DNA from: Bacillus phage vB_BspP_Dartukuta
Direction: 5' to 3' (one strand)
Sequence record: MW749009.1
DNA length: 60,862 nucleotides
Shown: positions 20,804-54,600 of the stretch, one piece after another
How positions within the stretch are numbered: the first letter of the stretch is position 1
Layout of the letters: each line of letters starts with the position of its first letter
Notes under the pieces: generated by a model
The model's database searches: none
What the model was told of the DNA's origin: nothing
The model's input: only the letters and a program-made list of their open reading frames with translations
Position numbers and translations under genes: made by a program

Positions 20804-20982
20804 CAGATGATTGCACCGATTGCGGCACATTCGCACGATCAGCGCCCGCTGATTACGACTACAGTAAGGCGCTTGACCTGCTTAATGAGCGTGTAGATAT
20901 GACTGACGAACAGCGCGATCTAGCAAAGGCATACCTAGACAAGGTGCGTGATAGTCAATTTAAAGAAGGTGAACAGCAATGA
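20800..20982 (+). CDS. Hypothetical small protein (60 aa)
   Basis: ORF track; start overlaps the portal stop. Confidence 0.4.
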   Translation: MTDDCTDCGTFARSAPADYDYSKALDLLNERVDMTDEQRDLAKAYLDKVRDSQFKEGEQQ

Positions 20983-21284
20983 GTAGAACAGAAGGCGGCA
21001 AAGTAACCGAGATTATTATCAGCGTTATGGGCCAAGCAGCCGTTTGCGACATTGTTGATACTGAGCAGCATCGTCAGGCTAATGTATATCTGCCACAGAA
21101 CGGTGGTGCCGCATTGTTTGCAATGTTTGACACAGGCACCGATGACGAGACAATCCGACAAGCGCTGATCCCAGTATTGCGTGGTGACCCGCTAGAGGTA
21201 GACATTGAGATCACAGACCAAGTAGCCGGTAGTTTGTTTGCTGGAACAATCGCACGACCAGTAGTTAACCTTCAACGTGCATAG
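20979..21284 (+). CDS. Hypothetical protein (101 aa)
   Basis: ORF track; start overlaps the upstream stop. Confidence 0.4.
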   Translation: MSRTEGGKVTEIIISVMGQAAVCDIVDTEQHRQANVYLPQNGGAALFAMFDTGTDDETIRQALIPVLRGDPLEVDIEITDQVAGSLFAGTIARPVVNLQRA

Positions 21285-22483: not shown

Positions 22484-23767
22484 ATGCCCAGCCAGAACTC
22501 ACATGCGCCGTATGGTGATAAGCACAACATGAAGCAGCAGGCCGCTGGCTTGTTTGCTACCCACTTAAAACGCAACAACAAGCTATCGCACATGATCGGC
22601 AAAATGCCTAAAGGCGAAGCGGGTGCGATTGAAACAATTAAGCGCCAAACATCTTCACACCTACCATTTGTGCGTTGCATGGACTTAGGTAAAGGCACCG
22701 GTGACGAGATTACGTTTGACCTAGTAAATCCATTCGGTGCCGTGCCAATTATGGGCGGCGAAGTCGCTGAAGGTCGAGGTACCGGTTTAAGCCTAAGTCA
22801 AGACCGTTTACGAGTGAATCAGGCGCGTATCCCGATCAATTTGGGCGACACGATGACTACCATTCGCTCACCTGCTGACTTCCGTAAGTTGGGACGCCCA
22901 GTTGCTCAGGCAACAATGGACCGCTACATGGACCAATCACTTATCGTTCATGCAGCCGGTGCGCGTGGTTCTGTAAATAACTTTACCTGGTCAATCCCAC
23001 TCGAAAGCGACTCACGCTTTAACGATGTAATGGTAAACCCTGTGCGCGCCCCGACCAAAAACCGTCACTTCATGGCATCGGGCGGTTACGTTGAAGGCTT
23101 CAATCAGTCTGGTGGTGAGATGACCATTGCCAGCACAGACGTATTGAGCATGGGCGTTATCGATTCAATGCGCGCAGTGATGGATGAAATGATCCTACCG
23201 CCACCAATCGTTAAGTTTGACGGTGACTCTGCAGCAGATGACGAGCCTTTGCGCGTCATGCTGGTTACGCCAATGCAGTACAACCAGCTAGCAGCTGATC
23301 CTGAGTTCCGAAAAATTCAGATGGCGGCGCATACCCGTGCAAGTAGTAGCCAGCACCCGATCTTTAAAGGTGAAGTCGGTATCTGGAACAACTTCTTAAT
23401 CGTTAAGCAGCAGATCCCGATTCGATTCTTTGCTGGTGACAACATTAAGTATTGTGCTGATCACACTGGCGCTGAAAGCACCACAACCGTTCCTCAAGCG
23501 CTTGCAGCCGCTAAGTGCGCAGTTGATCGAGCAATCATCCTTGGTGGTCAGGCTGTTGGTGAAGGTATGGCCAAGTCTGACAAGTCAACGGTGCCGTTCT
23601 TCTGGTCTGAGAAAGAAATGGACCATGGCGACAAGGTTGAGTTGTTGATTGGCGCTATTCGCGGTGTAAGTAAATTCCGCTTTAACGTGAACACTGGCGA
23701 CCGTGTGGAAGCTACCGACTATGGCGTATGCATTCTGGACACTGTGGTTCCGCTGAACAAGGTTTAA
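22484..23767 (+). CDS. Putative major capsid protein (427 aa)
   Basis: Strong AGGAGG Shine-Dalgarno; size and position (after the scaffold) typical of a major capsid protein; no fold motif verified. Confidence 0.5.
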   Translation: MPSQNSHAPYGDKHNMKQQAAGLFATHLKRNNKLSHMIGKMPKGEAGAIETIKRQTSSHLPFVRCMDLGKGTGDEITFDLVNPFGAVPIMGGEVAEGRGTGLSLSQDRLRVNQARIPINLGDTMTTIRSPADFRKLGRPVAQATMDRYMDQSLIVHAAGARGSVNNFTWSIPLESDSRFNDVMVNPVRAPTKNRHFMASGGYVEGFNQSGGEMTIASTDVLSMGVIDSMRAVMDEMILPPPIVKFDGDSAADDEPLRVMLVTPMQYNQLAADPEFRKIQMAAHTRASSSQHPIFKGEVGIWNNFLIVKQQIPIRFFAGDNIKYCADHTGAESTTTVPQALAAAKCAVDRAIILGGQAVGEGMAKSDKSTVPFFWSEKEMDHGDKVELLIGAIRGVSKFRFNVNTGDRVEATDYGVCILDTVVPLNKV

Positions 23768-23843
23768 CTCAGCGTAACAACACAGCGTAACGGTGGGCGC
23801 TAAATCAGCGCTCACTGATTCAGATAAAAATTGGAGGCCAACC

Positions 23844-24320
23844 ATGGCTACAGTAAAAGTTAAATCCCAAGCATATCGCCAGTTCGGTATGACCGTGCCT
23901 TACGGCAACACGACCACTCTTGCTTATGGCTTAAAAACCAATGCAACGGGCGCAGTAATTAATTCCGACGCGACTGCTGCTTTAGCTGTCGGTGATGTTG
24001 TTGATCTTGGTCCATTGCCAGAAGGCATGCGTCTTGATGATGCGTTATTGGTCGTCACTGCTGGCATGACCGCAACTGTTACCGGCTCATTAGGTTTCGC
24101 TTATGAAGACGGCGCAGATAGTACAGATGTACCGCAGGATGCTGCTTACTTTGGTGCTGATCTTGACCTTGCTACAGCAGGACGCGTGCGCTCCACAGGT
24201 TCCAAGCTGGTCAAGCTACCAAAACCTGCACGACTCACATTAACCACTGCAGCAGCAGCTAACGCTAAAGCGAGTGACATTAATGTTCTAGTTACCGGTG
24301 AGTTACTAGGCGCGCTATAA
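23844..24320 (+). CDS. Hypothetical virion protein (158 aa)
   Basis: ORF track 23793..24320; ATG at 23844 with GGAGG upstream; Ala/Thr/Gly-rich. Confidence 0.4.
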   Translation: MATVKVKSQAYRQFGMTVPYGNTTTLAYGLKTNATGAVINSDATAALAVGDVVDLGPLPEGMRLDDALLVVTAGMTATVTGSLGFAYEDGADSTDVPQDAAYFGADLDLATAGRVRSTGSKLVKLPKPARLTLTTAAAANAKASDINVLVTGELLGAL

Positions 24321-24372
24321 GCGGTCAGGGCTGGCTGGTATTACCGGCTAGCCCGTTACTGGAGTGAGTGAC

Positions 24373-25191
24373 ATGAAAGTTCTTATTATCGGTATTGCTC
24401 AAGTAGCGCACGCTATTAATGCCGCATATTGCAAAGCGCTTGGTGATGATACTCAAGTCGATTGGGCTAACGCACCTGAATGGCAGCAGAAGTCTGCTAT
24501 CGCTGGCGTAGAAATGCACTTGGCAAACCCCGATGCTACGCCTGAGCAGTCACATGAGTCGTGGCTAAAACAGAAGCTCGATGAAGGCTGGGTATACGGC
24601 GAAACGAAAGATGTAGAAGCCAAGCAGCACCCGTGCTGTGTTCCTTACGCTGATTTGCCAGCAGAACAAAAGGCCAAAGACTACATTTTTCGCGCAGCTG
24701 TTCATGCGGCAAAGACACTAGCTGACTCTATGCCTAAGCCGACACAAGTTAAGCCGGTTGAAGTCGCCGCGCCTACAGGTTTCTCTGGCAAGGTTATCAA
24801 CGTGCAATATGTTGGTGTGCGCGAAGAATGGCTAGACCATACCTACAGCACAGGTCTGCACTTCACAAAAGGACAGGTTCGAGCGATCCCTGTAGTGATA
24901 GCCAATAAGCTATTGCGCCATGCTGATATCTTCCAGCAAGCCGAAGATTTGCACTCACAGGATGATGAAGAAACTCTAATCCTGATTGACCAAGCACAGG
25001 ATAAAGCAGCCGAAGAGGAGGCTAGCAAGCAACGTCACTACGATATTCTGCACGAAGTATCAAAGATGAACCGTGACGGTTTGGTTCAGTTCGCAGCTGA
25101 ACGCTACCAAGTGAAGCTGAATGGCCGCGGCAAAGCTGATGATTTGCGTGAAGAAGTTAATCAGCTAGTTAATCAGTACGGTGTCGTATGA
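24373..25191 (+). CDS. RyR (ryanodine-receptor-like) domain protein
   Basis: Motif HESWLKQKLDEGWVYGETKDVEAKQHPCCVPYADLPAEQKAKDY matches the bacterial/phage RyR domain signature (W..GW.YG...D...K.HP.LVPY..LP.E.K..D). Confidence 0.55.
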   Translation: MKVLIIGIAQVAHAINAAYCKALGDDTQVDWANAPEWQQKSAIAGVEMHLANPDATPEQSHESWLKQKLDEGWVYGETKDVEAKQHPCCVPYADLPAEQKAKDYIFRAAVHAAKTLADSMPKPTQVKPVEVAAPTGFSGKVINVQYVGVREEWLDHTYSTGLHFTKGQVRAIPVVIANKLLRHADIFQQAEDLHSQDDEETLILIDQAQDKAAEEEASKQRHYDILHEVSKMNRDGLVQFAAERYQVKLNGRGKADDLREEVNQLVNQYGVV

Positions 25192-25865
25192 CTCTTCAGG
25201 GCTTAATTGCGGCATTCCGCGTACAGGCTAACGATAAGGTTGAGCCTTACTTTTGGTCTGACGAGGAAGTCACGGGCTACCTGAACAGCGCTCAAAGCGA
25301 GGCGGCTATTCGTGCGCGCCTGATCTATGAAGTTGCCGATGTAGACGTGTGCAGTATTGACGTGATTAAAGACCAGTCAATCTACAACCTCAATCCACTG
25401 CTGTACGAGTTGTCGCATGTCTCATTCAAGGCGGACGGCGAGAAGCAAGGTAACCGTATTTCAATCATGTCGCCCGAAGATATGAGCGGCCTTTGCGCTG
25501 GCGATTGGCGTGAGCGCACAGGCAAGCCGCGATTCGCTGTACAGGCCGACAAGTGGTTAAGGCTTGCGCCTACGCCTGATTCCGACGGGCTGCTGTTCAT
25601 TGAAGGCTACCGCGTACCTAAGCCGATGGATCTAGTCGATGCAGATACTGCGGCGCCTGAAATATCAGAGCTACACCATGAGCATCTGGTCAACTGGGCG
25701 TTACATAAAGCTTTCAGTATTCCCGATGCAGAAGGTTTTGATCCGCAGCGCGCACAAGATGCTGAGCGAGACTTTACCGAATACTTTGGCATACGCCCTG
25801 ATTCAGACTTACGGCGCATTACTCGCGAAGATGTGCCGCATACCGTGGAGGCATTCTGGGTATGA
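25188..25865 (+). CDS. Hypothetical virion protein (225 aa)
   Basis: ORF track; start overlaps the upstream stop. Confidence 0.45.
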   Translation: MTLQGLIAAFRVQANDKVEPYFWSDEEVTGYLNSAQSEAAIRARLIYEVADVDVCSIDVIKDQSIYNLNPLLYELSHVSFKADGEKQGNRISIMSPEDMSGLCAGDWRERTGKPRFAVQADKWLRLAPTPDSDGLLFIEGYRVPKPMDLVDADTAAPEISELHHEHLVNWALHKAFSIPDAEGFDPQRAQDAERDFTEYFGIRPDSDLRRITREDVPHTVEAFWV

Positions 25866-26056: not shown

Positions 26057-26456
26057 CACGCTATTCGACTTCGCACGTCAACGCTTCCTTGAGGCCCAGC
26101 TGAACTGGATGACCGACACCATCAAGGTGATCTTGGTCGATACCGGCGCATACACACCACAGACAGCAGTTCACCAATACCTAGCTGATATTCCTATCTC
26201 TGCGCGTATTGCTGGGCCAGTGACGCTAACCAGTAAAACCACTACAGGCGGTGCGGCAGATGCTGCGGACGTGACATTTACCAGTGTCACAGGCGCATCC
26301 ATTGAGTCGATCATCATCTATTCAGATAGCGGTACTGAATCGACAAGCCCGTTGATTGCCTACATTGATACAGCAACCGGCTTGCCCATCACGCCCAACG
26401 GCGGTGACATTATCGTTACATGGGATAACGGCACCAACAAAATCTTTAAAGTTTAA
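26049..26456 (+). CDS. Hypothetical virion protein (135 aa)
   Basis: ORF track 26016..26456; likely ATG at 26049 (MANTLFDF). Confidence 0.45.
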   Translation: MANTLFDFARQRFLEAQLNWMTDTIKVILVDTGAYTPQTAVHQYLADIPISARIAGPVTLTSKTTTGGAADAADVTFTSVTGASIESIIIYSDSGTESTSPLIAYIDTATGLPITPNGGDIIVTWDNGTNKIFKV

Positions 26457-26479
26457 TGCGCAGCGCGCAGGAGTGCGGC

Positions 26480-26782
26480 ATGACAAAAGCCACAAAGCCA
26501 CCAACACAAGTCGCAGGCGTAGAAGGTATTGCGCCTAAGCCTATCGTGCTCACGCCTGAGTCAAGCAAGATTGATTGGGCGAGAATTATCCAATTGCCGC
26601 CATTCCAAATGTTTGCCGTCGAGCGCGCGCGCAAGTCTGCCGCCGACGTGATGGCATGGATGCCGGCATGGGCGCGCGAGCACGAGAGCGAACAGGCGCT
26701 GTTCGACGACTACTGCCAGTGGCACAAAGAAAAGGGCTACTGGCCAGCAGAGACGCCAATGGGCGAATTGATCGAGCCGTAA
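26480..26782 (+). CDS. Hypothetical protein (100 aa)
   Basis: ORF track 26456..26782; likely ATG at 26480 (MTKATKPP). Confidence 0.4.
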   Translation: MTKATKPPTQVAGVEGIAPKPIVLTPESSKIDWARIIQLPPFQMFAVERARKSAADVMAWMPAWAREHESEQALFDDYCQWHKEKGYWPAETPMGELIEP

Positions 26783-26796
26783 CGAGAGGTTATTTC

Positions 26797-28683
26797 ATGC
26801 CACACATGCCAGGAAATGGCGCCATTTTCGGCGTTATCAGCGAGGACGGTCTAGCAAAGACTGGCTTCCCCGTGAGCCTTGTTGATAGAACCACGGGTAA
26901 ACTGGTGAGCCGACAACTGTCTGACGGAAACGGCGCGTTCGCCTTTAACGGCCTCAACCAGAACACCAATGACTATCAAGTGATTGGGCAGGACGAAGAC
27001 GGCGAAACGTACAAGAATGCGGTGATTCGTGACCGCATCCAGCCAGTGCCCGGATACCAAGGCGCAAGCTACTGGGGCAACTGGCGCTACGCTGCAATCC
27101 AGTACGGCGTCCACTCTTTCTATGACGGGCAGTTGGCCCACAACTATCTGGAAGACACCCAGTCTGGGACTGTGCCGTCGTACTCGGCGGGACAAGCACC
27201 GCGATTCCGATATTCTCCTAATAACTCGACAGGAACAGTAACGAAGCCAGTCATGGATGTTTCCATCACACAGGGAGACCCGAGCATTCCGGCCACTACG
27301 TTTGATTTGAGCACAATGACGGCCTACGGGATGACAAACCCCGCAGGAACCGTAGAGATCGACGCATTTGGAAGTCCTGCAAAGACCGCGCTAGAGCTGG
27401 TTGCTGACTTTTCTACACTTTCTTCGGAGTCTGGGTGGGCATCTTTCACTCATTCGTTATCGCACGAAAACGAAGACCCGAACACTGGAACCAATGTACC
27501 CCATGTAATTGGCCTTTACTACAACATCTCCGGGAAATACCTTCGCATTCAGGTTAACAACACCGGCGATTACCATCTACGGGCTGAACATAGAGTAAAC
27601 GTCGGCGACTTCTCAATGGAGGAGTATCAAGGCGTACATCATGTAGTGGCCTCCGCTGTGTTCGGCGAGGCGCTTAATTTGTACATCGACGGCGTTCTCG
27701 CTCATACGTTTTCTATGGTCGGAATGTCAGCCGCTTTGCGTTATAGAAACAACTCCGCTTATGGTCGAGTAGGCGGAACCCACATCCATGGGGAATACAA
27801 CCAAACCTCTAGCTCTAATCAAGGCATACATATCGCGCGTGGAATTTCTGGAAAGGTGGCTCTTCTCGCTTGGTATTCCAATGCGCTGGATGACGTTCAA
27901 GTTTTGGACTTACACCAAAGCCTAATGGTCGGGGCTGAGCCGAAGCTAACAGGCTTCGCTAAGGAAGTTTTCGCGGACCACCCCACCTTTTACGTCCGGC
28001 TGAACGAGCCAACTGGAACGACTTTCGTTCGGGACATGCTGCGCGGCCATACATCCGACGTTTTTGCCGGAAGGGTCTACGGCGAGACGCTCATGTTGCA
28101 GCCCTCCATCGTCGTTGGCGGCAACACCTTTGGGTTTAACGGTTCGTCATCCGTGCGCTTTAACTACAGCTCCCCGTCACTCTATAACTCCCAAGGGTTC
28201 ACGGTGCTGTGCGTCTTAAAGCCGGAGTTGGAAACTCCAGCTGCGACCGAGACACTGCTTAGATGCACAAACACTAGCGAGGCATACAATCACGGTGTAA
28301 TACTACAAAGGCTGGTCAATGGATGTTTAGGACTGATCTACCGCGCAGGCGGTTTGAACGAACAGATTGATTTCACTGTCCCTATTGGCACGGAGTCCAT
28401 GTGCTTAGCTGCCATTGCGATTGACAAAGTTGCCTTAACTGCCTCGCTTTTCATAAATGGCGAGTTAGCTGAGCAGCAGGTTATTGTTGGATCGTACATC
28501 GACCGACCGCCAAGCAGGGTATCTAACGCCATGTACTATCAGGCGATGATTGGAGGGATCACATCGGATACTGGGGGCATAACATCCCCTTACAGAGGAC
28601 TTCTCGGCGAACTTGCTGTCCTGCAAAACCCTATCACCGCTCAGCGGGCCAAGCAGATCTTCGACGCCACGCAGGTGGTGTAA
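26797..28683 (+). CDS. Tail-associated protein with two LamG/ConA-like lectin-type regions (628 aa), inferred
   Basis: ORF track 26575..28683; ATG at 26797 with GAGAGG upstream. Beta-rich N-terminus; two segments reminiscent of concanavalin-like lectin domains. Fold unverified. Confidence 0.45.
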   Translation: MPHMPGNGAIFGVISEDGLAKTGFPVSLVDRTTGKLVSRQLSDGNGAFAFNGLNQNTNDYQVIGQDEDGETYKNAVIRDRIQPVPGYQGASYWGNWRYAAIQYGVHSFYDGQLAHNYLEDTQSGTVPSYSAGQAPRFRYSPNNSTGTVTKPVMDVSITQGDPSIPATTFDLSTMTAYGMTNPAGTVEIDAFGSPAKTALELVADFSTLSSESGWASFTHSLSHENEDPNTGTNVPHVIGLYYNISGKYLRIQVNNTGDYHLRAEHRVNVGDFSMEEYQGVHHVVASAVFGEALNLYIDGVLAHTFSMVGMSAALRYRNNSAYGRVGGTHIHGEYNQTSSSNQGIHIARGISGKVALLAWYSNALDDVQVLDLHQSLMVGAEPKLTGFAKEVFADHPTFYVRLNEPTGTTFVRDMLRGHTSDVFAGRVYGETLMLQPSIVVGGNTFGFNGSSSVRFNYSSPSLYNSQGFTVLCVLKPELETPAATETLLRCTNTSEAYNHGVILQRLVNGCLGLIYRAGGLNEQIDFTVPIGTESMCLAAIAIDKVALTASLFINGELAEQQVIVGSYIDRPPSRVSNAMYYQAMIGGITSDTGGITSPYRGLLGELAVLQNPITAQRAKQIFDATQVV

Positions 28684-42616: not shown

Positions 42617-45600
42617 ATGAGCTTTGAAGTTGATTTAGACAGCGCTGTTCTTGAGGGTGATTATTATGGAGATGATACTAGGGTCAAGCCTGAGAGCAGC
42701 AGTTCAGGCTTTAGCCCTGAAGCAGGTCCCGCAAAGCAGCCAGCTCCCTTTAGCGTTGACCTAGAAAGCGCTGAGCTAGACGAAAAAGCCAACCAGGGCT
42801 TTATTGGAACATTAGCTGACGGTGCAAAATCGGCAGGTAGAGCCATTAGCTCTACTTACAATACTTATACTGGCGATGGTCAAGCAGTTGTTGATAACGC
42901 CAAGGCTCAAGAACTGGCCAATGAAGATAAAAGCCAAGACATTAAAAACTTCCAGTCTGACTGGGCGGCAAATACGGGCGCAGGTACTGATGACGAAGTA
43001 GGCTTATGGGGTGCTATCAAAGGCACTGGAAAGGCAATTATTGATAACCCTCGTGGTGCCGCCCTTTCAGTAGTTGAGCAATTCCCTAATTCAGTTCCAG
43101 CACTGGCCGCAGGCTGGGCAGGCGCTAAAGGCGGCGCAATGGCAGGGGGCGCAGTCGGCTCGGCTTTTGGTGGTGTCGGCGCTGGGCCTGGCGCTTTAAT
43201 TGGTGGCGCCGCGGGGTTTGTTGGCGGCATGTTCCTCGGTAATACGTTGACCGAAACGGGCCATAAGGCGCAAGAGTACGCTGCCGATGGTGAGTTCACG
43301 CCAGATGAGCAGTCAGCAGCTATTACCGAGGGCGCGAAAAAAGCCGGTGTTATTACAGCCGTAGATGCGCTTACCTTTGCTGTCGGTGGCAAGGTTTCTG
43401 GATACTATCGGAAAACAGCAGAGTCAACAGTTGAGGCAGCTACTCGCAAAACACTGCTTGACGCTGGTGTTGATATTAGCGATACAGCAGCGCTTACTGC
43501 GGCAAGAGGTAGCCCACAAATTGCAAGCCAAGTTGTTGAAGCGCAGAAAAATGCGGCAAAGATTGCAGACAATCTACGCAAGCGCGCAGGCGAGGCAGGC
43601 GCGCTACTTACAATGGAAACAGTCGGCGAAGGCTTAGGTGAATACTTAGGCGAACTGGCAGCGACTGGACAAGCAAGCGTAGCAGAGGCCGTGCTAGAGA
43701 GCTTCTTGTCGCTAGGTCAGTCTGGCGTTCAGTCGATGTTTAACTTTGCCAAGGCGCGAGAGCGTTCGCTCACTGACCAAGAATGGATTGATGCGTCAAA
43801 CGGTATTGCGCCAGAAGGTATGGCACCAGAGCAAATGCCGGTTGCTGATGGTATATGGGATAAGCCAACTCCAGAAGCCAAGATCGACATGGGGCAGATG
43901 CAGGGTGGCGGCGTAACACCGACACCTGTATTTGACCCGCAAGACATTGATCGCAACCTTGCACCGACACCATCGCAGCAAATGGGAATTAACCCTGATG
44001 CTGGCCCACTTTCTGCTGCTGCAGCGCAGTCAGTTGATAGTGGCTTGTTTACAGGCGGGTTTACCCCACAAGCCGGAATTAACCAATCGGCACTTGAGCG
44101 CGAGGGCGTAACGCCGCCGCCAGTATTAGATACTGACCAGATTGACCGCAACTTAGGAAGTATTGATCCATTAACAGGTGAGTACATGCCTGCACCTGAG
44201 CAGTTAGGTCAGTCGAGTCAAGCGGGAGGCGCCGGTAATTATGAGTATGACCAATGGGGCAACCTAAGCAGCGTTGATGGCCGCACAGTAGATGGTTACG
44301 GTCAAAACCAACCACGCCTTGGTTTTAATAGTAAAGCCGAGCGCAGCACCGCGCCGTTATATGAAGTTGGGCCTGATGGTGTGGCGCGTCCATCTTCAGG
44401 AGAGGCGGCGCGGAGTAGAAAAGAACGTATTGACCTATCATCGCTGAAAGGTAGACAGCAAACCCAAGCGCAAAAACAGCCTGCTGCTATGCCAGAGCAG
44501 CGTAGTCCTGAACAGCAAGCGCAATCTATCTGGGATTCAATGAATACCTTTGAGCGTAACGCTGCAGCAGCAAATGTTCTTGGTATGCGCGGCGTACCGG
44601 CTAAGAATGCAGCCACAAAAGCATGGGATAAGCTAAGCTCTGAACAGCAGGCCAAGCTCGTAACTGGACTTGAGAGCCAGCAAGGGAAACGCTGGATAGA
44701 CCCTAATCAGAAAGTGACTGACCAAACTGGCCCTGTGCTACAAAACCGCGACCGCACAAGCCAAGACTCAATCAATCAGATGCGAAGCATCTCAAACAAT
44801 CCAGACTACAGCAGGTTAAAAACATCAGGCTTCTTGTCTGACGGTGCGCCTGTTGTTGTTGATGAGAATATTCAAATACCAGCGTCACAGATGGGCGTTA
44901 CTGATACTGCTTCTGCAGGAAACGAGCGCTTTAACGTGCAGTACGCAGTAGTTGAAGCCGACCAGTTAATGACCAGTAACAGCATTGACGGTACCACTAA
45001 CGCTGAATACCAGACAGGGGCTGCAGGTAAGGCTAGAGCAATTGCAGGTAATGGACGAATCACTGGCTTGCAATCAGCATGGGCTAAAGGCAACGCCAGC
45101 CAATACAAAGCCGATATGGCAGCCGATAGAATGCACGGCATTGACCCGGCCGTTATTGAAGGCATGCGCAATCCTGTTTTAGTCCGCTTATTGCCGCAGG
45201 ATCAGGTCACTGACAATATTGGCGACCTAAGCAACAGAGACGAGAAAGGCAGACTTTCGCCGGTCGAGCAAGCCAAAACAGATATGGGCCGCATTGACCT
45301 TGATAGCCTAAAGTTTACTGCTGAAGGTGCTATCGGTGGCGAAGCGATCCACCAGTTCCGCATGGCTCAACCTGCAGCTGAGCGCGTGAGTGAGGCAGAG
45401 GCACGGAAGCGACTGACTTCTGCTGTCTTCCAAAAGGCATACGGAAACGATCAGCTTACAGAAATCCAGTCTGGTGAAAGTGACGATGCCAAATCAATCT
45501 TATCAGCACTGGCACAAGCAGCCCCAAGCATGTCACGTCTTGAAGGAGCTGGTGAGTTTGATATTCGCCCACTAATCACGCAGGCAGGCATTGCGGCTGT

Positions 45601-48600
45601 AAACGCAGCGCGTAGAGGCACTAAACTTGCTGATTATGTTCAGCAGTCAGAAATGGGTATTGATCCAATGGTATACCCAATTCTGGAAATGATGCTGAAC
45701 GAGAATGGCAATATCCGTAGTAGCAAATACATCGGCGAACAGCTAACCAATATGGCAAAGTTGGCTTATGATGAAGCCAACTCACCTAGCTCAGATATGT
45801 TTGGCGAAAAACCCAAGCGTACAGCTGAGCAGGTTATTCAAGACGCGCTTACTGGAGTACAAGGTTATGGCCAAATCAATGACGGAAGAGGGCAAGAAAG
45901 TCTGGGGCAGCGAGGGCGGTCAGAACCTGATGCGCAAATGGTTGAAGGGCCAGAAGGCGGACGAGAGCGACCAGCAGACACTAGACAAACTGCACCAACT
46001 CAACCAGAAGCAGAGCAAGAACAACCCGCAGCAGTAGAAAGCAATGCGCCTGAAACATGGCGCAGTAACTACATTCAAGCCGCCAAGATTGCACGCGAAA
46101 AAGGCATTAATCCTAAGCAGCATAAAAAACTCGCTGACTTGGTTGAAGCTATTGATGCGTCAAACACTAAACCTGAAGCTCAAACACAGCTAACAGCACA
46201 ACAGAAGCAGGCTTCAGGCAGTGTAGATGGTGCAAAAGTCCATCTTAACAACAGCATTGACCTAACCAGCGCATTAGCTGCAATCGCACGCGGCGCACAA
46301 TTAAGCACCGAGCCAAACGGTGACGTTATTCTTAGTGGCACCAAGATAATTACGCTTCCAAAGCCGCCAACTTCTATTGATGAAGTTATTGCCCCGTTAG
46401 CCACAGCCTTACTAGAACAAATGCGAGCAGATGGCGTTTCTATGCCTGGCAACCCAGCGGACATGACGCGGGATCAGTTTGCTATTGCCTATCACTTTGC
46501 AAACATAATTCCAGAGTTTGAAATCAGCGGAGCAGATATTGGTGGCGTAGTCCAAGGATCAAGCCGTGGCTTAACAGTAGACTCAGACAAGCTATACGAC
46601 AAGATCATCGAGCAAGCCAAAGAGCAGGCTAAACCAGCCTTGGAGCTTAACCAGCAAACCGAAGAATCCTTAGCTAAAGATGCCAAACGATTAGAGCAGC
46701 TGCAGAAAGAAGAAGCTGCGCAGAAAGTCGCGCAGAAAGCTGCAGAAAGGAAACAGCGTGAGCGTGACGCAGACAAGGCCAGAGCGGACGAAGTGGTTGA
46801 TGACTTCCAGTTGGGGCAGTCTGCAGAAGAAGTAATGTCTGGCATGGGTGATATTTTTGCGACTGAGAGCAAGCCAGCAGATAAAGGCATTGCGTCTCAA
46901 GCCGATGACAGCCATGTCACAGTTGTTGATAACCAATACAACCCAAACCCTACAGAAGCGCAGAAGCAGGCTGGCAACTACAAGAAGGCTCACGTTAAAT
47001 TCCAAGGCCTTGATATCACAGTAGAGAATCCAGTCGGATCAGTGCGCAGTGGCGTAGATCCTGACGGCAATACTTGGTCAAATACTATAAAGCATGATTA
47101 CGGATACATTAAGCGCACTAAGGGCGCTGACGGCGACCATGTTGATGTGTTTATAGGTAAAGATACCGAAAGCGATAAGGTATTTGTAATTGATCAGCCG
47201 CACAAAAACGGTAAGTTCGACGAACACAAAATCATGCTCGGCTTTAAAGACCAGACGCAGGCCGTAGAAGCGTACAAAGGCAACTATCAGAAAGACTGGA
47301 AAGTTGGCTCTGTCACTGAAATGACTGTGGGCGAATTTAAGCAGTGGCTTAGCAATGGTGATACCACCAAACCGGTTGAGCCAGTCGCGAAGCCAGCAGC
47401 GCAAACAAAGCCAAGCCAAGCCATTGAGGACTTTGGTGAGAGGCTGGAAGGCGCACGCAAGGATTACGCCAGCAAACTATCTGACGCTAAAGAGGTAGAC
47501 ATTGCGACTGAGCCACTATCAAAGTCTTGGCCAGAGCCGAATTATCAGAAGTTGATTGACGGAGGAATGCCGCTAGAAACAGCAAGTATTGTTCGTGCTA
47601 TTCGTGATGAGATTCCAGTGAAGCCGCGCGCATCATGGCGACTGAAAGGATGGGTGCGACAAGTAAGCGAAATGCGTGATTTAGCCTTGAATTTGATGGG
47701 GGAAACAGCTACAGCTAAAGTGATTGTAGAGCAGATAAAATCTAATAAATCTTTATCAGACATAGTGAATCGTGCAGACCTGTACTCGGCAGTTGGGCAC
47801 GATAAAAGCCTAAAAGATATTAGTTTAAAACAAAGCTCTTACTCGTTGATTGATGGTGTTAAATACTCGCCACCGAAAGAGCTCTGGACGGTTGAAAGGC
47901 CGATTAAAAGCAGCGTAATAAGCAACATGCCCAGACGTATTGCGACAGCTGAAACAAGAGAGCAAGCGATTGCCAAATTCAAAAATGCGTATGCAACATT
48001 GGACGAAAGCAAACGTGTCAAGAACAAAGCAGTTGAGTTTGGGGTTTATACAGACAGAACCACAAAAGATGTTTTCATTGGCCGGAAGGTTGGCAAAAGT
48101 ATTGCTCGCGTAAAAACTGGATTCGAAACTGCTAAAGATGCAATTGCACACCTAAAGGAAAACTATGCTGCTCTTGAAGAGCGGTTTAACAAGATGAAGG
48201 ATACGCCCGATCATCGTAAGGCTGAAAACTCACCTAGAGTTGGCGTTGATCACCGAAATGGCGCGGATGTAACACCGGAGCAGTTCTCTGATACGTTCGG
48301 GTTCAGAGGGGTGCAGTTCGGTAACTATGTAGAGCAAGGACGTAGGCAGCAGGATCTAAATGAAGCCTATGATGCGCTTATGGACATGGCTGGCGTGTTA
48401 GGTATTCCAGCAAAATCTCTATCTTTAAATGGTGAGCTTGGACTAGCGTTTGGTGCTCGTGGTAAGGGTGGAAAACAAGCAGCTAAAGCGCATTATGAGC
48501 CAGATCAAATTGTTATTAACTTAACTAAGAAAAATGGCGCAGGCAGCCTTGCTCACGAATGGTGGCATGCGCTTGATAACTATTTTGGCCGCGAGCGTGG

Positions 48601-51600
48601 CGGTAAAAGCAATGAAATGTATGCCTCAGACAATCGAGCTCACGCGACAGTCAGACCTGAAATGGCAAAGGCTTATCGTGATATTGCAAGCGCAGTAAGC
48701 CGAACCAAGCTGAAGTTTCGTTCAGACAAGCTCGATAGAATGCGCACAAAACCATACTGGGGTACCGGTATAGAAATGACTGCGCGATCTTTCGAGAGCT
48801 ACGTTATTGAGAAGCTGCGTGATAGCGAGTTATCTAATGATTATTTAGCCAATATTGTTGGCGAAGATTACTGGAATGCTGCGGCAGCACTGGGCATTGA
48901 AAAGGATGGTACTTATCCGTATCCAGAGGCGGCTGAGATACCGGAAATCCGCGCTGCGTATGATAACTTTTTTAACACTCTAGAAACAAAGGAGGGTGAA
49001 GATGGCAATGTCCTGCTTTTTAGCTTTGCAGGCAAGACTGCTCGTGGCGCTGATCTTATGGCGCTGGATCAGGCTCAGTTGCGCATTGCTTCTGGTGACA
49101 ACGCCGAGACTGTACGCCAAGAAACAGGTTGGCACCGTGGCGATGATGGAAAGTGGCGCTTTGAGATCAGCGATGATCAAGCCAAGCTGCGCGTAGCTGG
49201 TAAAAATGCAGGTGAGCTTATTGACTCAGCCGCGCTTGACGCGATCACCGGTGGCCGCAAGTTCCCAGTGACTTCTGACCTGATCGACCACGCTCAACTA
49301 TTTGTTGCCTATCCTAAACTAAGCAATATCAAAGTAGAGAAAATGCCAGAAGGCGGTACCGCTCTAGCGCGATTAAAGCGCAGAGCTACAGGCTTCACTA
49401 TCCAGTTGCGCGATAACTTGCCACGCGAGAAAGTGGCGTCTGCAATCTTGCATGAGCTACAGCACGGCATTCAGGTTTACGAAGGCTTTGCCGTAGGCGG
49501 CTCTAAGAATATGGTCTTCAGTGATCTTGATATGAGTGGAGCCAAGGCGTATCGCGCACTTGCCGGTGAAGTGGAAGCGAGAAATACCCAAACACGCCAC
49601 TCTATGACGCCAGCTTTGCGCCGCAACATTGCGCCTGAGCTGACTCAGGACACGCCAAGTGCAGACGTGATCGTCACGTTCAACGGTAAGGACATTACCA
49701 ACAAGGCAATTCCTAATAACGTCAATAACGCGCCGATAACTGATGCCTCGCTGGTGCGAGCGTTCGATGTACAGTTCCCTCGGTTAACTAAAGCTGTGCG
49801 CACCATGCTTGCCCGTGGTAATAAGGGCGAGCGTGGTGGTGTGGTCGTGATTGATAGCGCTGATCCATTGATGATTGCCCGTGCGTTCGCCAAGAAAACA
49901 GGCAAGCCAATATCGCAGTCGGTGCAAATGTTCTCAGACGCTGGTGTGATCAATGGCTTCTTTGATCCTAAGTCTGGCCTTACCTTCCTTGTTGGTCCGA
50001 ACTTGAATCCAGTCACCGGCACAGCTGTTTTGCTTCACGAAATGATCCACGGTCAACAGCGCCAGAAGATCGACAAGGCCGCACTTGCCATGCTGATGAA
50101 TCGCGGCAAAGAGAAAAACGCAGAAACACGAGCGTTCCTTGATCGCGTAGCTGCTCGCATGGATGATGCTGGCGAAACAGCGAACGCACAAGAGGCAGGC
50201 GCTTACATTGTTGAGCAGGCCGTAATGGAAGGTAAGAGCGCTGGTTATGGCACTGCAGACAGCCGATTCCTTTCATGGGTAGACCAACATATTGGTAAGA
50301 CGGTAGGTGACTTCTTACGCTCGTTCATCGGTAATTTGCGCAGCTGGGCGCTGCGTAACGGCTTGCCTATTGGTCCGATTACTGTGGACGATCTTGTTAG
50401 CTACGCAATGGCAGGTATGAAGCAGGCTGGTCGCGGTAATGTTGATGGCGGTGCCGCTGGGTTCAGTCGTGACGCAACAGCTAGCCTAGAGGATGCTCTA
50501 GCGAAACTTGATGCGCTCGGCCTGAAGCATCGGATCAGCGAGCGCAACGATGTTATTACTGTGAGCAAGATTGAGGTGCCCGAGGGCGCTAGAGGTCAGG
50601 GCGCTGGATCATCGGCAATGCAAGCCCTGATCGACTACGCGGACGCCACTGGTAAGCACATTGCTTTAACACCAACAGCCGATTTTGGTGGTAACAAAGC
50701 AAGGCTTAAGGAGTTCTATCAGCGCTTTGGATTCAAGGAAAATAAGGGTAAAAACAAAGTTTACGAAGTCTCAGAAGGAATGGTTCGCGAAAATCCGAAT
50801 GGGCGCACCCTATATTCAAAGGGCATCACTGAAGATCTAGCAGAAGGCCAGCGGCAGTTTGCACAAACAGAAAATGCTTACGGTGGTCGTGCAGCCTACG
50901 ATCAGGCAAAATCAGAGGGCAAGACCAAGCTGAACTATCAGCAGTGGGTGCAGGTACGTACGCCTGCTTTTAAAAACTGGTTTGGGGATTGGGAAAATGA
51001 ATCAGAAAGAGTTGAGCGAAAAACAGAAAGAGTTCAGGAGGTGGCTGGACGAAACACTGCCAAACCCAACGCCAGAGCAACTCAGCCAGCTGGACGAGCG
51101 TGGCGACTGGATCCAGAAACCGGAGAGCCAAGAATCTTCTATCACGGAACCAAAGACAGCTTCACCGTCTTCGACCTAGATCACCAGAACAGAAAGGATC
51201 ACGGCTGGTTAGGTACAGGTATTTACACTGGAAGCGATAAACTTTTAGCAGAGTCATACGCAAGGCTGAAAGATGGCTCAGGTGAGCCGCGAGTTATGGA
51301 GTTTTTTGCAAATGTAAGGAACCCATATAAGGCTACTATAGAAGATAAGCAGCGGGGAAGATTTGCTGATAGAGCTTACGCCGACAGAGTTACAGAAAAG
51401 TTAAAAGAAGCTGGATACGACGGTGTAGTACTTCCGTTCGCAGATGGCAGTGTCGAGCTGGTGGCGTTTGATAAGCCGCAGATCAAATCAGCCACCGGCA
51501 ACGTCGGTACGTTTAGTGCAGACAATGATGATATACGATTTAGCTTTGCCGGCCAAAGGTCAGGAACAGCCGACCACTACTCATTAGGGTCAGCGCAGCA

Positions 51601-54600
51601 GCGCATTGAATCCGGCGAAAATGCAGAAGCGGTGCGTCAAGACACGGGCTGGCACAAAGGCATTGATGGCAAGTGGCGCTACGAAATTAGCGACCATGAC
51701 GCAAAACTACGCAAGCCATTTCCATCTAAGGGCCAGCTTTGGGGTGGAGTTTACGAAAGTGTCAACCAGTCCAAGGTGCAAAGAGGCGAGGGATACGGTA
51801 TCAGCCTAGGCGAAATACTGGATCACCCTGCACTATTTGCGGCATACCCGCATCTTGCAAGCCTATCTGTAAGCACGCAAAAGGGTAGCGGTGCGTCATA
51901 CGAGTCCGGCAGCCCTTCCAGTCCGGCATCTATCAGTATCGGCACCGATGTGCCAATGTATGACGTGCCAAGCAAGCTGCTGCACGAAATCCAGCACGGC
52001 ATTCAGAATATTGAAGGGTTTGCGCGTGGCGGCACTTTAGAAACGGGCGCTGGTTTGAGCAACCTTCATGCTCTACTTGAAAAGCAGAAGAATGAATTTG
52101 AAAACGAGCACGGGTTCAACGACTGGATTTTTGAACTAATACTGGAGCAGCCAAAACGACATAAAGCCTTGATGGACGAGGGCGCAAAAGATGGGTATTC
52201 ACTCCGTTCGCTATATCAGTCTTTTGCTAGTGAGAAGCTATCAGAAGAAGATCGCGGATATTTCGTATCGAGGATGCTGGGTTATGAAGATAAACTAAGA
52301 AAAGTCGCGCTTTCAAAGCACATAACTCCGAGCGAGTTCTATCAACGATTAGCAGGCGAAGTTGAAGCCCGCAACACCCAGATCCGCCATAAGATGACGG
52401 CTGAACAGCGCAAAAGCACACCGCCAAGCGCAACGCAAGATGTATCCGATGCCGATGCCATTGTCATGTTCAACGGAACGGAAATGCACAACGCGCCCGC
52501 ACCGGCAAACACCGGCACAAGCGACATTCGCTTCAGCCGCTCAGCTAACCCAGCTTCAATAAGCGCGGCACCAAACGGAATGGCAGCTTGGGATAGCCCT
52601 TCGGCATCGAAGTTCGATGACTTTGTTTACAAGATGCAAGATAAGCACGTTGATACAAAGCGCGTGATTGAAGCTATCCGCGACACAGGTAAGGCAATCA
52701 GCGATGACCTAGACGTATACCTGCAAGAAACATTGTTTCATGGGCGAGCAGCTAAGCGCACGCAAGACTTCTTAAACAAGGAAGTAAACCCGCTTATTGA
52801 GTACATGCAAAGCGCCAAGGTTGAAATGAGCGATCTTGAAGAGTTCTTGCACGCACGACACGCACAGGAAGCTAACGCGCTGATTGCTAAGCGCGATCCT
52901 AATATGCCTGATGGTGGGTCAGGTATGACAAACGCTGAGGCCGCAAAATACCTTAATTCGCTAAATGGCGTTCGACGTAAGCAATTAGAGAACGCTGCAA
53001 AGTTTGTCGATAAGATTATCGGTGGAACACGAGAAACCATTGTTAGCTATGGCCTTGAAAGCCAAGAAACGGTTGATGGCTGGACAGCCGGATTCAAGCA
53101 TTACATTCCGCTGCAGCGTGAAGATAAAGACGGCCAGATGGGTATTGGCCAAGGCTTCAGCGTTAAAGGAAAAGAGACTAAAGGACGCACAGGCTCAACA
53201 CGTAAGGTTGTTGATATTCTGGCCAACGTGATGATGCAGCGTGAGCGCGCCATTGTTCGTGGTGAGAAAAACCGAGTAGCAGTTGCATTGCTAGGACTCG
53301 CTAAAGATAACCCGCTACCTGAGTTCTGGCAGGTTGATAAAGTTCCGACAACACGGGTGCTTGATAAAGTAACAGGCTTGGTACGCAACCAAGCGGACCC
53401 TATGTACAAGAGTAGAGACAACGCTATTGTAGCTAAGGTAAACGGCCAAGAGCATGCGATCCTGATGAACGAAGACGACCCACGCGCAATGCGCATGGCC
53501 GAGGCTTTAAAGAATCTTGATGCGGCACATCTGGAAGGGTTGTTAGGTGCTACAGCCACTGCGACACGATACTTTGCAGCAGTGAATACGCAGTACAACC
53601 CGATATTTGGCGTAACAAACTTTGTTCGCGATATTCAAGAAGCCATGCTTCACTTACAAAGCACGCCACTAGCAGGGCAGCAGTCGCGCTTGTTCAAAAA
53701 TACATTCACCGCAGTTGGCGCGGTAATGAAAGCAGAGCGCGACGGCAGAAAAGGAAATAATGCAACAGGGAAGTGGGGCGTTTTATGGGAAGACTTTCAG
53801 AATACCGGTGGGCAGACTGGCTTCAGGGATCAGTTCAGCAATAGCGCAGATCGCGGCAAAGAGATCCAGCGAGCTTTAACACCGGATGGCTGGGCGGAAA
53901 CAGGCTTAGGCAAGTTCTTTACCGCCAATGGAGCACTTAAAGCACCGCTCGAAGTAGTGCGCAAAAAAGCGGCATGGCTGTTTGATCTGCTATCTGATTA
54001 CAACACGGCAATGGAAAACGGCGTGCGATTATCTGCTTATGAGACTGGGATTAACGCTGGCATGAGCAAAGAGCAGGCGGCAGCACTGGCCAAGGGATTG
54101 ACCGTTAACTTTAATCGAAAAGGCCAAGTTACCCAGCAAGTCGGCGCGCTCTATGCGTTCTTCAATGCGAGCGTGCAAGGTACTGCTCGATTAGGTCAGT
54201 CGCTGTTTGATATGGATGCTGGCAAGCCTAAAACGCTACGCCTATCGTCTCTAGGGAAGAAAATCGTATCAGGCGGCGTTATGCTGGGCGCGTCTCAGGC
54301 TGTACTGCTAGCGATGGCTGGCTTTGATGATGAAGAGCCGCCTGAGTTTATCCGTGAGCGCAACATCATCATACCGACGGGCGGAAAAACCTATATCAGC
54401 ATACCAATGCCGCTTGGCTATCACGTTATCGCAAACCTTGGCCGTATACCGATGGAGTTTGTTCTTGGTGGTGGAAAAGATGGCGCTAAGCACCTGTTTA
54501 ACCTAATGGACGTAATGGCAGACATTTACAATCCAATCGGTAACTCAGGCTTATCCATGCAAACAATCGCGCCTACTGTGCTCGATCCGCTTGCTGGCCT

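Follow-up and report, generated by a model that had tools for sequence, protein, structure and literature searches.

Phage proteins that carry the ryanodine receptor-like RyR domain (PF02026) have recently been described as antagonists of Thoeris immunity in two preprints. DyoEdafos gp78 (RyDEP), from a mycobacteriophage, is a PF02026 protein cleaving 2'/3' cyclic ADP-ribose (cADPR); eight further phage homologs were tested, of which six bound Thoeris signals and none cleaved them, and the homologs H4 and H7 were nanomolar sponges that defeated type I Thoeris in vivo (Lopez Rivera et al., bioRxiv, May 2026, PMC13232231). RyR Tad, which is gp68 of Pectobacterium phage vB_PatP_CB1, was crystallized with 1''-3' glycocyclic ADP-ribose (gcADPR), for which its dissociation constant (KD) is 43 nM, and its binding residues are H129/W132, K147/H154, and K170/D171, with the W132A substitution abolishing activity (Fedorova et al., June 2026, 10.64898/2026.06.04.730250). 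The published structures of RyR Tad and RyDEP are both dimers, formed via helices alpha1 and alpha4 (PMC13232231; 10.64898/2026.06.04.730250). Here, we analyzed a full 60,862-nucleotide (nt) stretch from Bacillus phage vB_BspP_Dartukuta (MW749009.1), referred to as the window, with coordinates counted from its first letter, which contains a gene for a 272-amino-acid (aa) RyR-fusion protein. The original prediction for this gene held that the RyR domain of phages has no known function, a statement that is outdated, since both preprints report sequestration or hydrolysis of Thoeris gcADPR.

Comparison of the window protein with these systems revealed shared as well as distinct features. Like RyR Tad, it is a two-domain protein with a PF02026 Repeat12 domain, and in both proteins the partner module also occurs as a separate open reading frame (ORF). 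However, the RyR domain of RyR Tad is C-terminal, after an unrelated 65-aa beta domain, and is encoded beside a primase gene in an early anti-signaling hotspot of an N4-like phage, whereas that of the window protein is N-terminal and is followed by a disordered linker and a 130-aa head-module domain, the gene being part of the late structural operon in a temperate F116-like phage. RyDEP belongs to the same domain family, and its catalytic and ligand residues are conserved in the window domain, but it is a single-domain 138-aa enzyme encoded within the NARP1 operon for NAD+ resynthesis, with 39% identity to the window domain; unlike in DyoEdafos, no NARP1 genes adjoin the window RyR-fusion gene. 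F116 gp45, H66 gp47, and H5 (Hollowayvirus) are true orthologs, which share the two-part build, the locus, and the 4-nt overlap with the adaptor gene and differ in having a longer linker and an overall identity of 38 to 41% (RyR domain, ∼64%; C-terminal domain, ∼30%). The RyR annotation of F116-type orthologs is already present in GenBank (H66, phiC725A, and Baskent_P6), and one ortholog was included in a published test panel. The head-module fusion, the cassette indel between close relatives, and the decayed RyR remnants presented below are in the available text of neither preprint.

The RyR domain and its ligand pocket

The RyR domain was recognized by its Pfam profile (PF02026) with 46.4 bits versus a gathering cutoff of 27.4 (E = 4.9e-12; aa 57 to 103, profile positions 25 to 71 of 91), a highly significant match that bears out the earlier assignment of the domain from its motif. 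In agreement with this, phmmer searches against Protein Data Bank (PDB) sequences matched the Bt-hRyR Repeat12 chimera (E = 2.3e-27), most full-length RyR1-3 entries (E of about 1e-17 to 6e-21), the Bacteroides thetaiotaomicron RyR-like protein 3NRT (7e-13), and RyDEP (35TM; 2.9e-11). The AlphaFold2 (AF2) model of the 272-aa protein, with a mean predicted local distance difference test (pLDDT) score of 92.6, consists of two domains with a low-confidence linker between them, and its RyR domain (pLDDT, 94 to 98) has the four-helix Repeat12 fold, for which Foldseek returned RyR-repeat structures only from the PDB, with a probability of 1.00. The motif reads W64..G72-W73-V-Y75-G76-ETK-D80-VEA-K84-Q-H86-P87-CC-V-P-Y92-A-D94-L-P96-A-E98-Q-K100-AK-D103; nearly all of the pattern first proposed is thus present, although its first W precedes GW by 7 residues instead of 2, and the segment given as HP.LVPY reads HPCCVPY. 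The fold and the nucleotide-binding pocket are common to the window domain, Repeat12 of the animal RyR1-3, and 3NRT of B. thetaiotaomicron. Animal RyR domains are tandem repeats in a 5000-aa Ca2+ channel, whereas the window protein has no transmembrane or channel parts, and a calcium-channel role was therefore ruled out.

The residue numbering of RyR Tad fits homolog H7 of the RyDEP study, to which the window RyR domain is 60.7% identical over 107 aa, and all six RyR Tad ligand residues are kept in the window domain (H61, W64, K79, H86, K102, and D103). Identity to H5 was 63.6% over 107 aa. H5 is an F116-type ortholog of the window protein with the same two-part architecture; it was listed as UniProt A0A481V2A2 (Pseudomonas, 290 aa), with only residues 1 to 113 having been cloned (Supplementary Table 1 of PMC13232231). 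The RyR domain (∼64% identical to H5) is far better conserved than the C-terminal domain (30 to 37% among orthologs), indicating purifying selection on the RyR domain. As judged from sequence and predicted fold, every testable feature of the RyDEP/RyR Tad family was found in the window protein.

It is likely that the RyR module acts against Thoeris as a binder or degrader of gcADPR. Within this anti-Thoeris reading, a sponge is strongly preferred over an enzyme, because identity to the sponge H7 is much higher and none of the eight tested homologs cleaved the signal. The alternative of an active RyDEP-type glycosidase, which would open 2'/3' cADPR at its ribose-ribose bond and yield linear ADP-ribose (ADPR), draws on the conservation of RyDEP residues H75, W78, H100, and D117, all of which map to identical residues in the window domain (H61, W64, H86, and D103) despite an overall identity of 38.7%. 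However, the same residues are kept in the proven noncatalytic sponges H4 and H7, so that sequence alone cannot separate an enzyme from a sponge, and cleavage was seen for none of the eight homologs, the F116-type H5 included, whether or not H5 bound the signal. Considering also that identity of the window domain amounts to 61% with sponge H7 but only 39% with the enzyme, and that the NARP1 genes seen in DyoEdafos do not adjoin it, we regard a glycosidase as unlikely.

Fusion architecture and the head-module partner

The location of the gene among head genes, as originally predicted, was confirmed, with the capsid and phrog_8260 genes upstream and the SU10-type adaptor gene downstream, and it is explained by an in-frame fusion of the RyR domain onto a conserved head-module gene. 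Comparison with contig L016, a close metagenomic relative carrying the stand-alone form of this gene, revealed a clean in-frame indel (Table 1). L016 is collinear with window positions 24255 to 24381, which cover the end of the decoration-like gene, a hairpin, the Shine-Dalgarno (SD) sequence, and ATG AAA GTT, and is collinear again with positions 24790 to 25314 (76% nt identity), with nothing matching 24382 to 24795. The stand-alone gene of L016 starts with ATG AAA GTT ATC AAC GTG (MKVINV), so that the segment in the window sits just after codon 3, bounded by AAAGTT (24376 to 24381) and AAGGTT (24790 to 24795). Given this 414-nt difference, the RyR domain and linker are best read as a cassette inserted in frame immediately behind the start of a preexisting head-module gene, and such a cassette would borrow the ribosome-binding site and operon of that gene. 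The linker has pLDDT values of about 54 to 65, falling below 50 at residues 128 to 133, and forms a gapped block in the ortholog alignment. The placement, once called unusual, is so only in comparison with stand-alone RyR genes of early or anti-defense loci; all F116-like phages share it, and it is accounted for by the fusion.

The C-terminal domain comprises a small beta module (aa 141 to 190) with the motif V.YIG.R..W.D.LYG.GL.F..GQ.R.VP..A.K.LRH.D.F, a long helix of 34 residues (198 to 231), and a helix-extended-helix (HeH) pair (234 to 245 and 255 to 269), and when modeled alone with AF2 it reached a pLDDT of 92.8. A word-indexed protein search with this domain gave only 2 matches, and an exhaustive HMMER search with residues 121 to 272 gave 384 cluster representatives at E < 1e-3. 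An alignment of the window protein with 148 database proteins (n = 149) was used to describe the family. Most members (103 of 149) are stand-alone proteins of 120 to 160 aa that begin at the conserved motif, and another 40 are extended at the N terminus by 90 aa or more, nearly always with a RyR domain. All six ligand residues are kept in 28 of these 40, and the others have substituted RyR domains or truncated remnants. For instance, members P0039, P0094, P0031, P0010, and P0100 retain only the first two helices or have YWYNKD or HWIHMA in place of HWKHKD; such degenerate or truncated domains suggest decay of an anti-defense module where selection lapsed. In addition, coiled-coil or Ala-rich N-terminal extensions were observed instead of RyR in members P0071, P0084, P0130, and P0131. 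From the aligned members, it seems that domains of various kinds can be docked onto the N terminus of the head-module gene.

Stand-alone genes share the locus of the fused gene, lying between a capsid gene plus a gene for a protein of ∼158 aa on one side and an SU10-type adaptor gene on the other, as found in contigs L006, L007, and L017 and in Shewanella phage Y11, Pseudoalteromonas phage Y7, and Achromobacter phage CF418P1; fused forms keep this synteny (contigs L013 to L015). In a neighbor-joining tree of the C-terminal domain, fused and stand-alone members were interspersed, with 26 changes by Fitch parsimony, a count that is not to be relied upon because the sequences are short and mostly about 25 to 50% identical to the window domain, and 24 of the 40 fused members were nearest to another fused member, compared with 27% expected by chance.

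Regarding the nature of the partner, Pfam searches of the C-terminal domain family yielded nothing above noise in the stand-alone members or in 95 aligned members, PHROGs searches of stand-alone members matched unknown-function families only, and the family profile built from the 95-member alignment had no significant match among PDB sequences. Matches of the acidic helix of stand-alone members to a "prohead protease inhibitor" PHROG were marginal and were judged to be low-complexity noise. Moreover, the GenBank names "alanyl-tRNA synthetase" and "Anti-CRISPR protein" given to orthologs or stand-alone C-terminal domains had no supporting Pfam or PHROG match and were rejected; the records concerned (e.g., MK511039 to MK511051, OQ927986, OR791114, and BK061591) look like propagated pipeline errors. 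For the model of the C-terminal domain, the listed values were 6.2 for T4 endonuclease VII, 5.8 for the PIAS1 SAP domain, 5.5 for Bacillus subtilis YqbF, and 5.3 for the C-terminal domain of lambda gpFI, and its matches in BFVD were uncharacterized phage proteins. Lambda gpFI is a DNA packaging chaperone of ∼130 aa with an HeH-like motif, which is not in the virion and is encoded between the capsid and adaptor genes (E-FI-FII), and the same capsid-to-adaptor position is occupied by the window C-terminal domain gene and by the stand-alone genes of L006, L007, L017, Y11, Y7, and CF418P1. No homology between the family and gpFI was detected by hhalign (probability, 0.4%), so the likeness rests on gene position, size, and the HeH motif only. 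With low confidence, the fusion partner is a probable non-virion accessory of head assembly or packaging.

The idea, implied by the original prediction, that the protein is part of the virion was not supported by the proteomic annotation of phage H66. In its GenBank record, the note "verified by mass spectrometry as part of the virion" is attached to gene products 0042, 0045, 0046, 0048, 0052, and 0054, comprising the portal, capsid, decoration-like, and adaptor proteins and two tail proteins, and H66_0047, the RyR ortholog, lacks this note although both of its neighbors carry it. A proteomics paper on the AH14a prophage was set aside, as it concerns an unrelated siphovirus. A virion component, capsid or neck associated, whose RyR domain would be carried on or inside the particle either structurally or for sponge delivery at the next infection, would fit the position of the gene between genes for mass spectrometry-verified virion proteins (0045, 0046, and 0048 in H66), its translational coupling to the adaptor gene, the RyR-domain gene of the T4-like phage Ps15, which also lies "between two neck proteins," and the probable codelivery, in this phage group, of a large counter-defense protein along with the DNA (the polyvalent protein of 4203 aa). 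In view of the gap at H66_0047, the existence of close relatives altogether without the RyR module, and the published cases in which the isolated RyR domain suffices for anti-Thoeris activity, we consider such a role improbable, slightly more so than the glycosidase. A sensor of ATP, ADP, or ADPR that regulates the partner in head assembly or DNA packaging, rather than an immune antagonist, is more improbable still, for although the same pocket of RyR3 Repeat12 accommodates ATP analogues and ADP, the partner sits at the position of the lambda packaging chaperone gpFI, and the covalent fusion is widespread (about 27% of the family), the partner works without RyR in about 70% of the family, a close relative included, the long, variable, and disordered linker argues for independent modules, all six gcADPR-contact residues of RyR Tad are conserved, and RyR domains of other phages are fused to several unrelated partners.

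Gene neighborhood and expression

The window belongs to a temperate F116-like phage. The nearest relatives of the RyR-fusion protein, which matches phrog_11782 over its full length (E = 3.9e-70), are in Pseudomonas phages 8P and vB_PaeM_USP_18/25 (∼50% aa identity), and identity to the proteins of the Hollowayvirus phages F116, H66, and LKA5 is 38 to 39%; the window phage represents a lineage distinct from the latter. Genes for a CI-like repressor, RecE/RecT, a single-stranded DNA-binding protein (SSB), and dUTPase occupy the left arm, and genes for an Ant-like anti-repressor and a transposase lie at the right end. The structural block runs in the order terminase, portal, scaffold-like protein, major capsid protein, virion structural protein, RyR-fusion protein, SU10-type adaptor, and CsrA-like regulator, and an identical order was found in 8P, F116, USP_25, PA8, and H66.

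Table 1. Features of the RyR-fusion locus in the window
Feature	Position	Strand	Description
Major capsid protein	22484-23767	+	PF13252 Phage_capsid_3, 423 bits; phrog_334
Second hairpin, 3' of capsid gene	about 23791-23817	+	No T-run; fold of 23762-23845, -21.9 kcal/mol, z -2.5
Decoration-like "virion structural protein," 159 aa	23841-24320	+	phrog_8260, E 4e-58
RNA hairpin, 12-bp stem	24328-24354	+	No T-run after; between decoration-like stop and RyR-fusion gene
Shine-Dalgarno GGAG	24361-24364	+	8 nt 5' of ATG; read from sequence
RyR-fusion coding sequence, 272 aa + stop	24373-25191	+	ATG 24373, TGA 25189-25191; ORF list and sequence
RyR/Repeat12 domain, aa 1-115	24373-24717	+	Four helices, 2-22, 36-51, 57-70, 97-119; PF02026
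In-frame 414-nt segment, 138 codons (RyR + linker)	24382-24795	+	Missing from contig L016
Flexible linker, aa 116-140	24718-24792	+	Rich in Pro, Ala, Val, Thr, Lys; variable length and sequence among orthologs
C-terminal domain, aa 141-272	24793-25188	+	phrog_19474 ("unknown function"), E 1.6e-20
ATGA overlap, RyR-fusion stop/adaptor start	25188-25191	+	Read from sequence
SU10-type head-tail adaptor	25188-25865	+	PF24175, 87.8 bits; phrog_399
CsrA-like regulator, 64 aa	25862-26056	+	phrog_8397, E 8e-21

With regard to expression, an alternative GTG start at 24364 was rejected, as it has no SD sequence and every ortholog begins with MK(V/P/I). The ATGA overlap is predicted to couple translation of the RyR-fusion and adaptor genes; the same 4-nt overlap is present in F116, 8P, USP_25, and H66 and at the stand-alone loci of L006, L016, and L017, and it is thus kept with or without the RyR cassette. 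The fold of positions 24318 to 24375, which combines the 12-bp stem with a second small stem, had an energy of -29.5 kcal/mol (z = -4.66), with none of 200 shuffles being as stable, and the 24328-24354 hairpin is conserved in L016. At the places equivalent to both hairpins of Table 1, the H66 record has an annotated "terminator"; they are probably attenuators or mRNA-stabilizing elements that set a capsid > decoration > downstream expression ratio. No promoter-like or intrinsic-terminator-like sites were found immediately around the RyR-fusion gene in the capsid-to-adaptor stretch, and given the hairpins upstream, the gene is therefore probably expressed late and at a level attenuated relative to that of the capsid protein.

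Several further observations were made in the surrounding genes. The CsrA-like gene lies directly 3' of the adaptor gene within the structural operon and is kept in F116 and 8P. A Phage_gp49_66 (PF13876) gene occurs 3' of the portal gene in contigs L013 (1145 to 1765) and L015 (6513 to 6905), and the window ORF at the equivalent spot (20979 to 21284) had no family match; on visual inspection, the N-terminal domains that accompany RyR in homologs H6 and H8 of the RyDEP study may be Phage_gp49_66-like. For the ORF at 26575 to 28683 (+), the called TTG start at 26575 overlaps the upstream gene (26456 to 26782), and the true start is probably near 26797 (MPHMPG...); its product has a C-terminal Laminin_G_3/ConA-like lectin domain (PF13385, 31 bits), which suggests a tail or receptor-binding component. 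Farther downstream, a polyvalent protein of 4203 aa is encoded at 42617 to 55228 (+), with Pfam domains ddrB-ParB, InPase, LPD5, LPD1, LPD23, a weak GNAT, ART-PolyVal (ADP-ribosyltransferase), and LPD38. It probably corresponds to H66 gp60, an IVP-D-like internal virion protein discussed previously (PMC4819975), and if so, it would be an injected multi-enzyme counter-defense protein.

Proposed mechanism and significance

According to the mechanism that we propose, module 1 (aa 1 to 115) would be a Repeat12 domain of the RyDEP/RyR Tad type, most likely forming a back-to-back dimer, the pocket of which (H61, W64, K79, H86, K102, and D103) is predicted to bind above all 1''-3' gcADPR and also 1''-2' gcADPR, more likely as a sponge than as a glycosidase. 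The bound signal would be withheld from the ThsA effector, so that NAD+ depletion and abortive infection would not be triggered. Module 2 (aa 141 to 272) would be a conserved head-module protein, probably a non-virion assembly or packaging accessory, whose gene is coupled to the adaptor gene. With the RyR domain and linker inserted after the start codon, expression would proceed via the ribosome-binding site of the head-module gene and the late structural operon, and the sponge would be made alongside capsid and tail proteins, two classes known to set off Thoeris TIR sensors. Moreover, the fusion itself might be functional, with the sponge tethered at the assembling capsid or packaging machine, where capsid proteins activate TIR sensors, or with a small number of copies loaded in or on the particle to serve in the next infection, although we consider this doubtful; if true, tethering would represent spatially targeted sponging of an immune signal, which the available text of neither preprint describes.

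Several points weigh against this proposal. A place in the late operon is unusual for a gene of immune evasion, considering that RyDEP activity was reported from early to mid infection and that RyR Tad lies in an early anti-defense hotspot beside the primase gene. The RyDEP catalytic dyad (H75 and D117) is conserved in the window domain (H61 and D103), and H5 may be either one of the six homologs that bound the signals or one of the two that did not (PMC13232231). Moreover, substituted ligand residues or truncated RyR remnants in about a quarter of the fused members point to a function that is dispensable or variable, the lack of H66_0047 in the mass spectrometry list is a weak negative, since other expected virion proteins are also unflagged, and an anti-Thoeris role would presuppose Thoeris in the host lineage. 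Regarding timing, Thoeris TIR sensors are triggered by major capsid proteins (PMC12578639), and side tail fibers do so as well in Pseudomonas aeruginosa phages. Late expression may thus not be illogical, as the sponge would be coexpressed with the proteins that trigger Thoeris.

These results replace the long-standing annotation "RyR domain, function unknown" of F116-like transducing Pseudomonas phages with a concrete prediction, Thoeris evasion, that can be put to the test. Moreover, they illustrate how a counter-defense module can spread, namely as a promoterless cassette that is joined in frame to a conserved late gene and relies on its start codon. Close relatives naturally differ in having or lacking the cassette, and a precise deletion of it would mimic the stand-alone allele. 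In addition, phrog_19474 emerges as a widespread, uncharacterized head-module family that has no Pfam model and onto which accessory domains have docked repeatedly. In phage therapy against Pseudomonas, knowing whether the six pocket residues are present and intact could help to predict escape from Thoeris.

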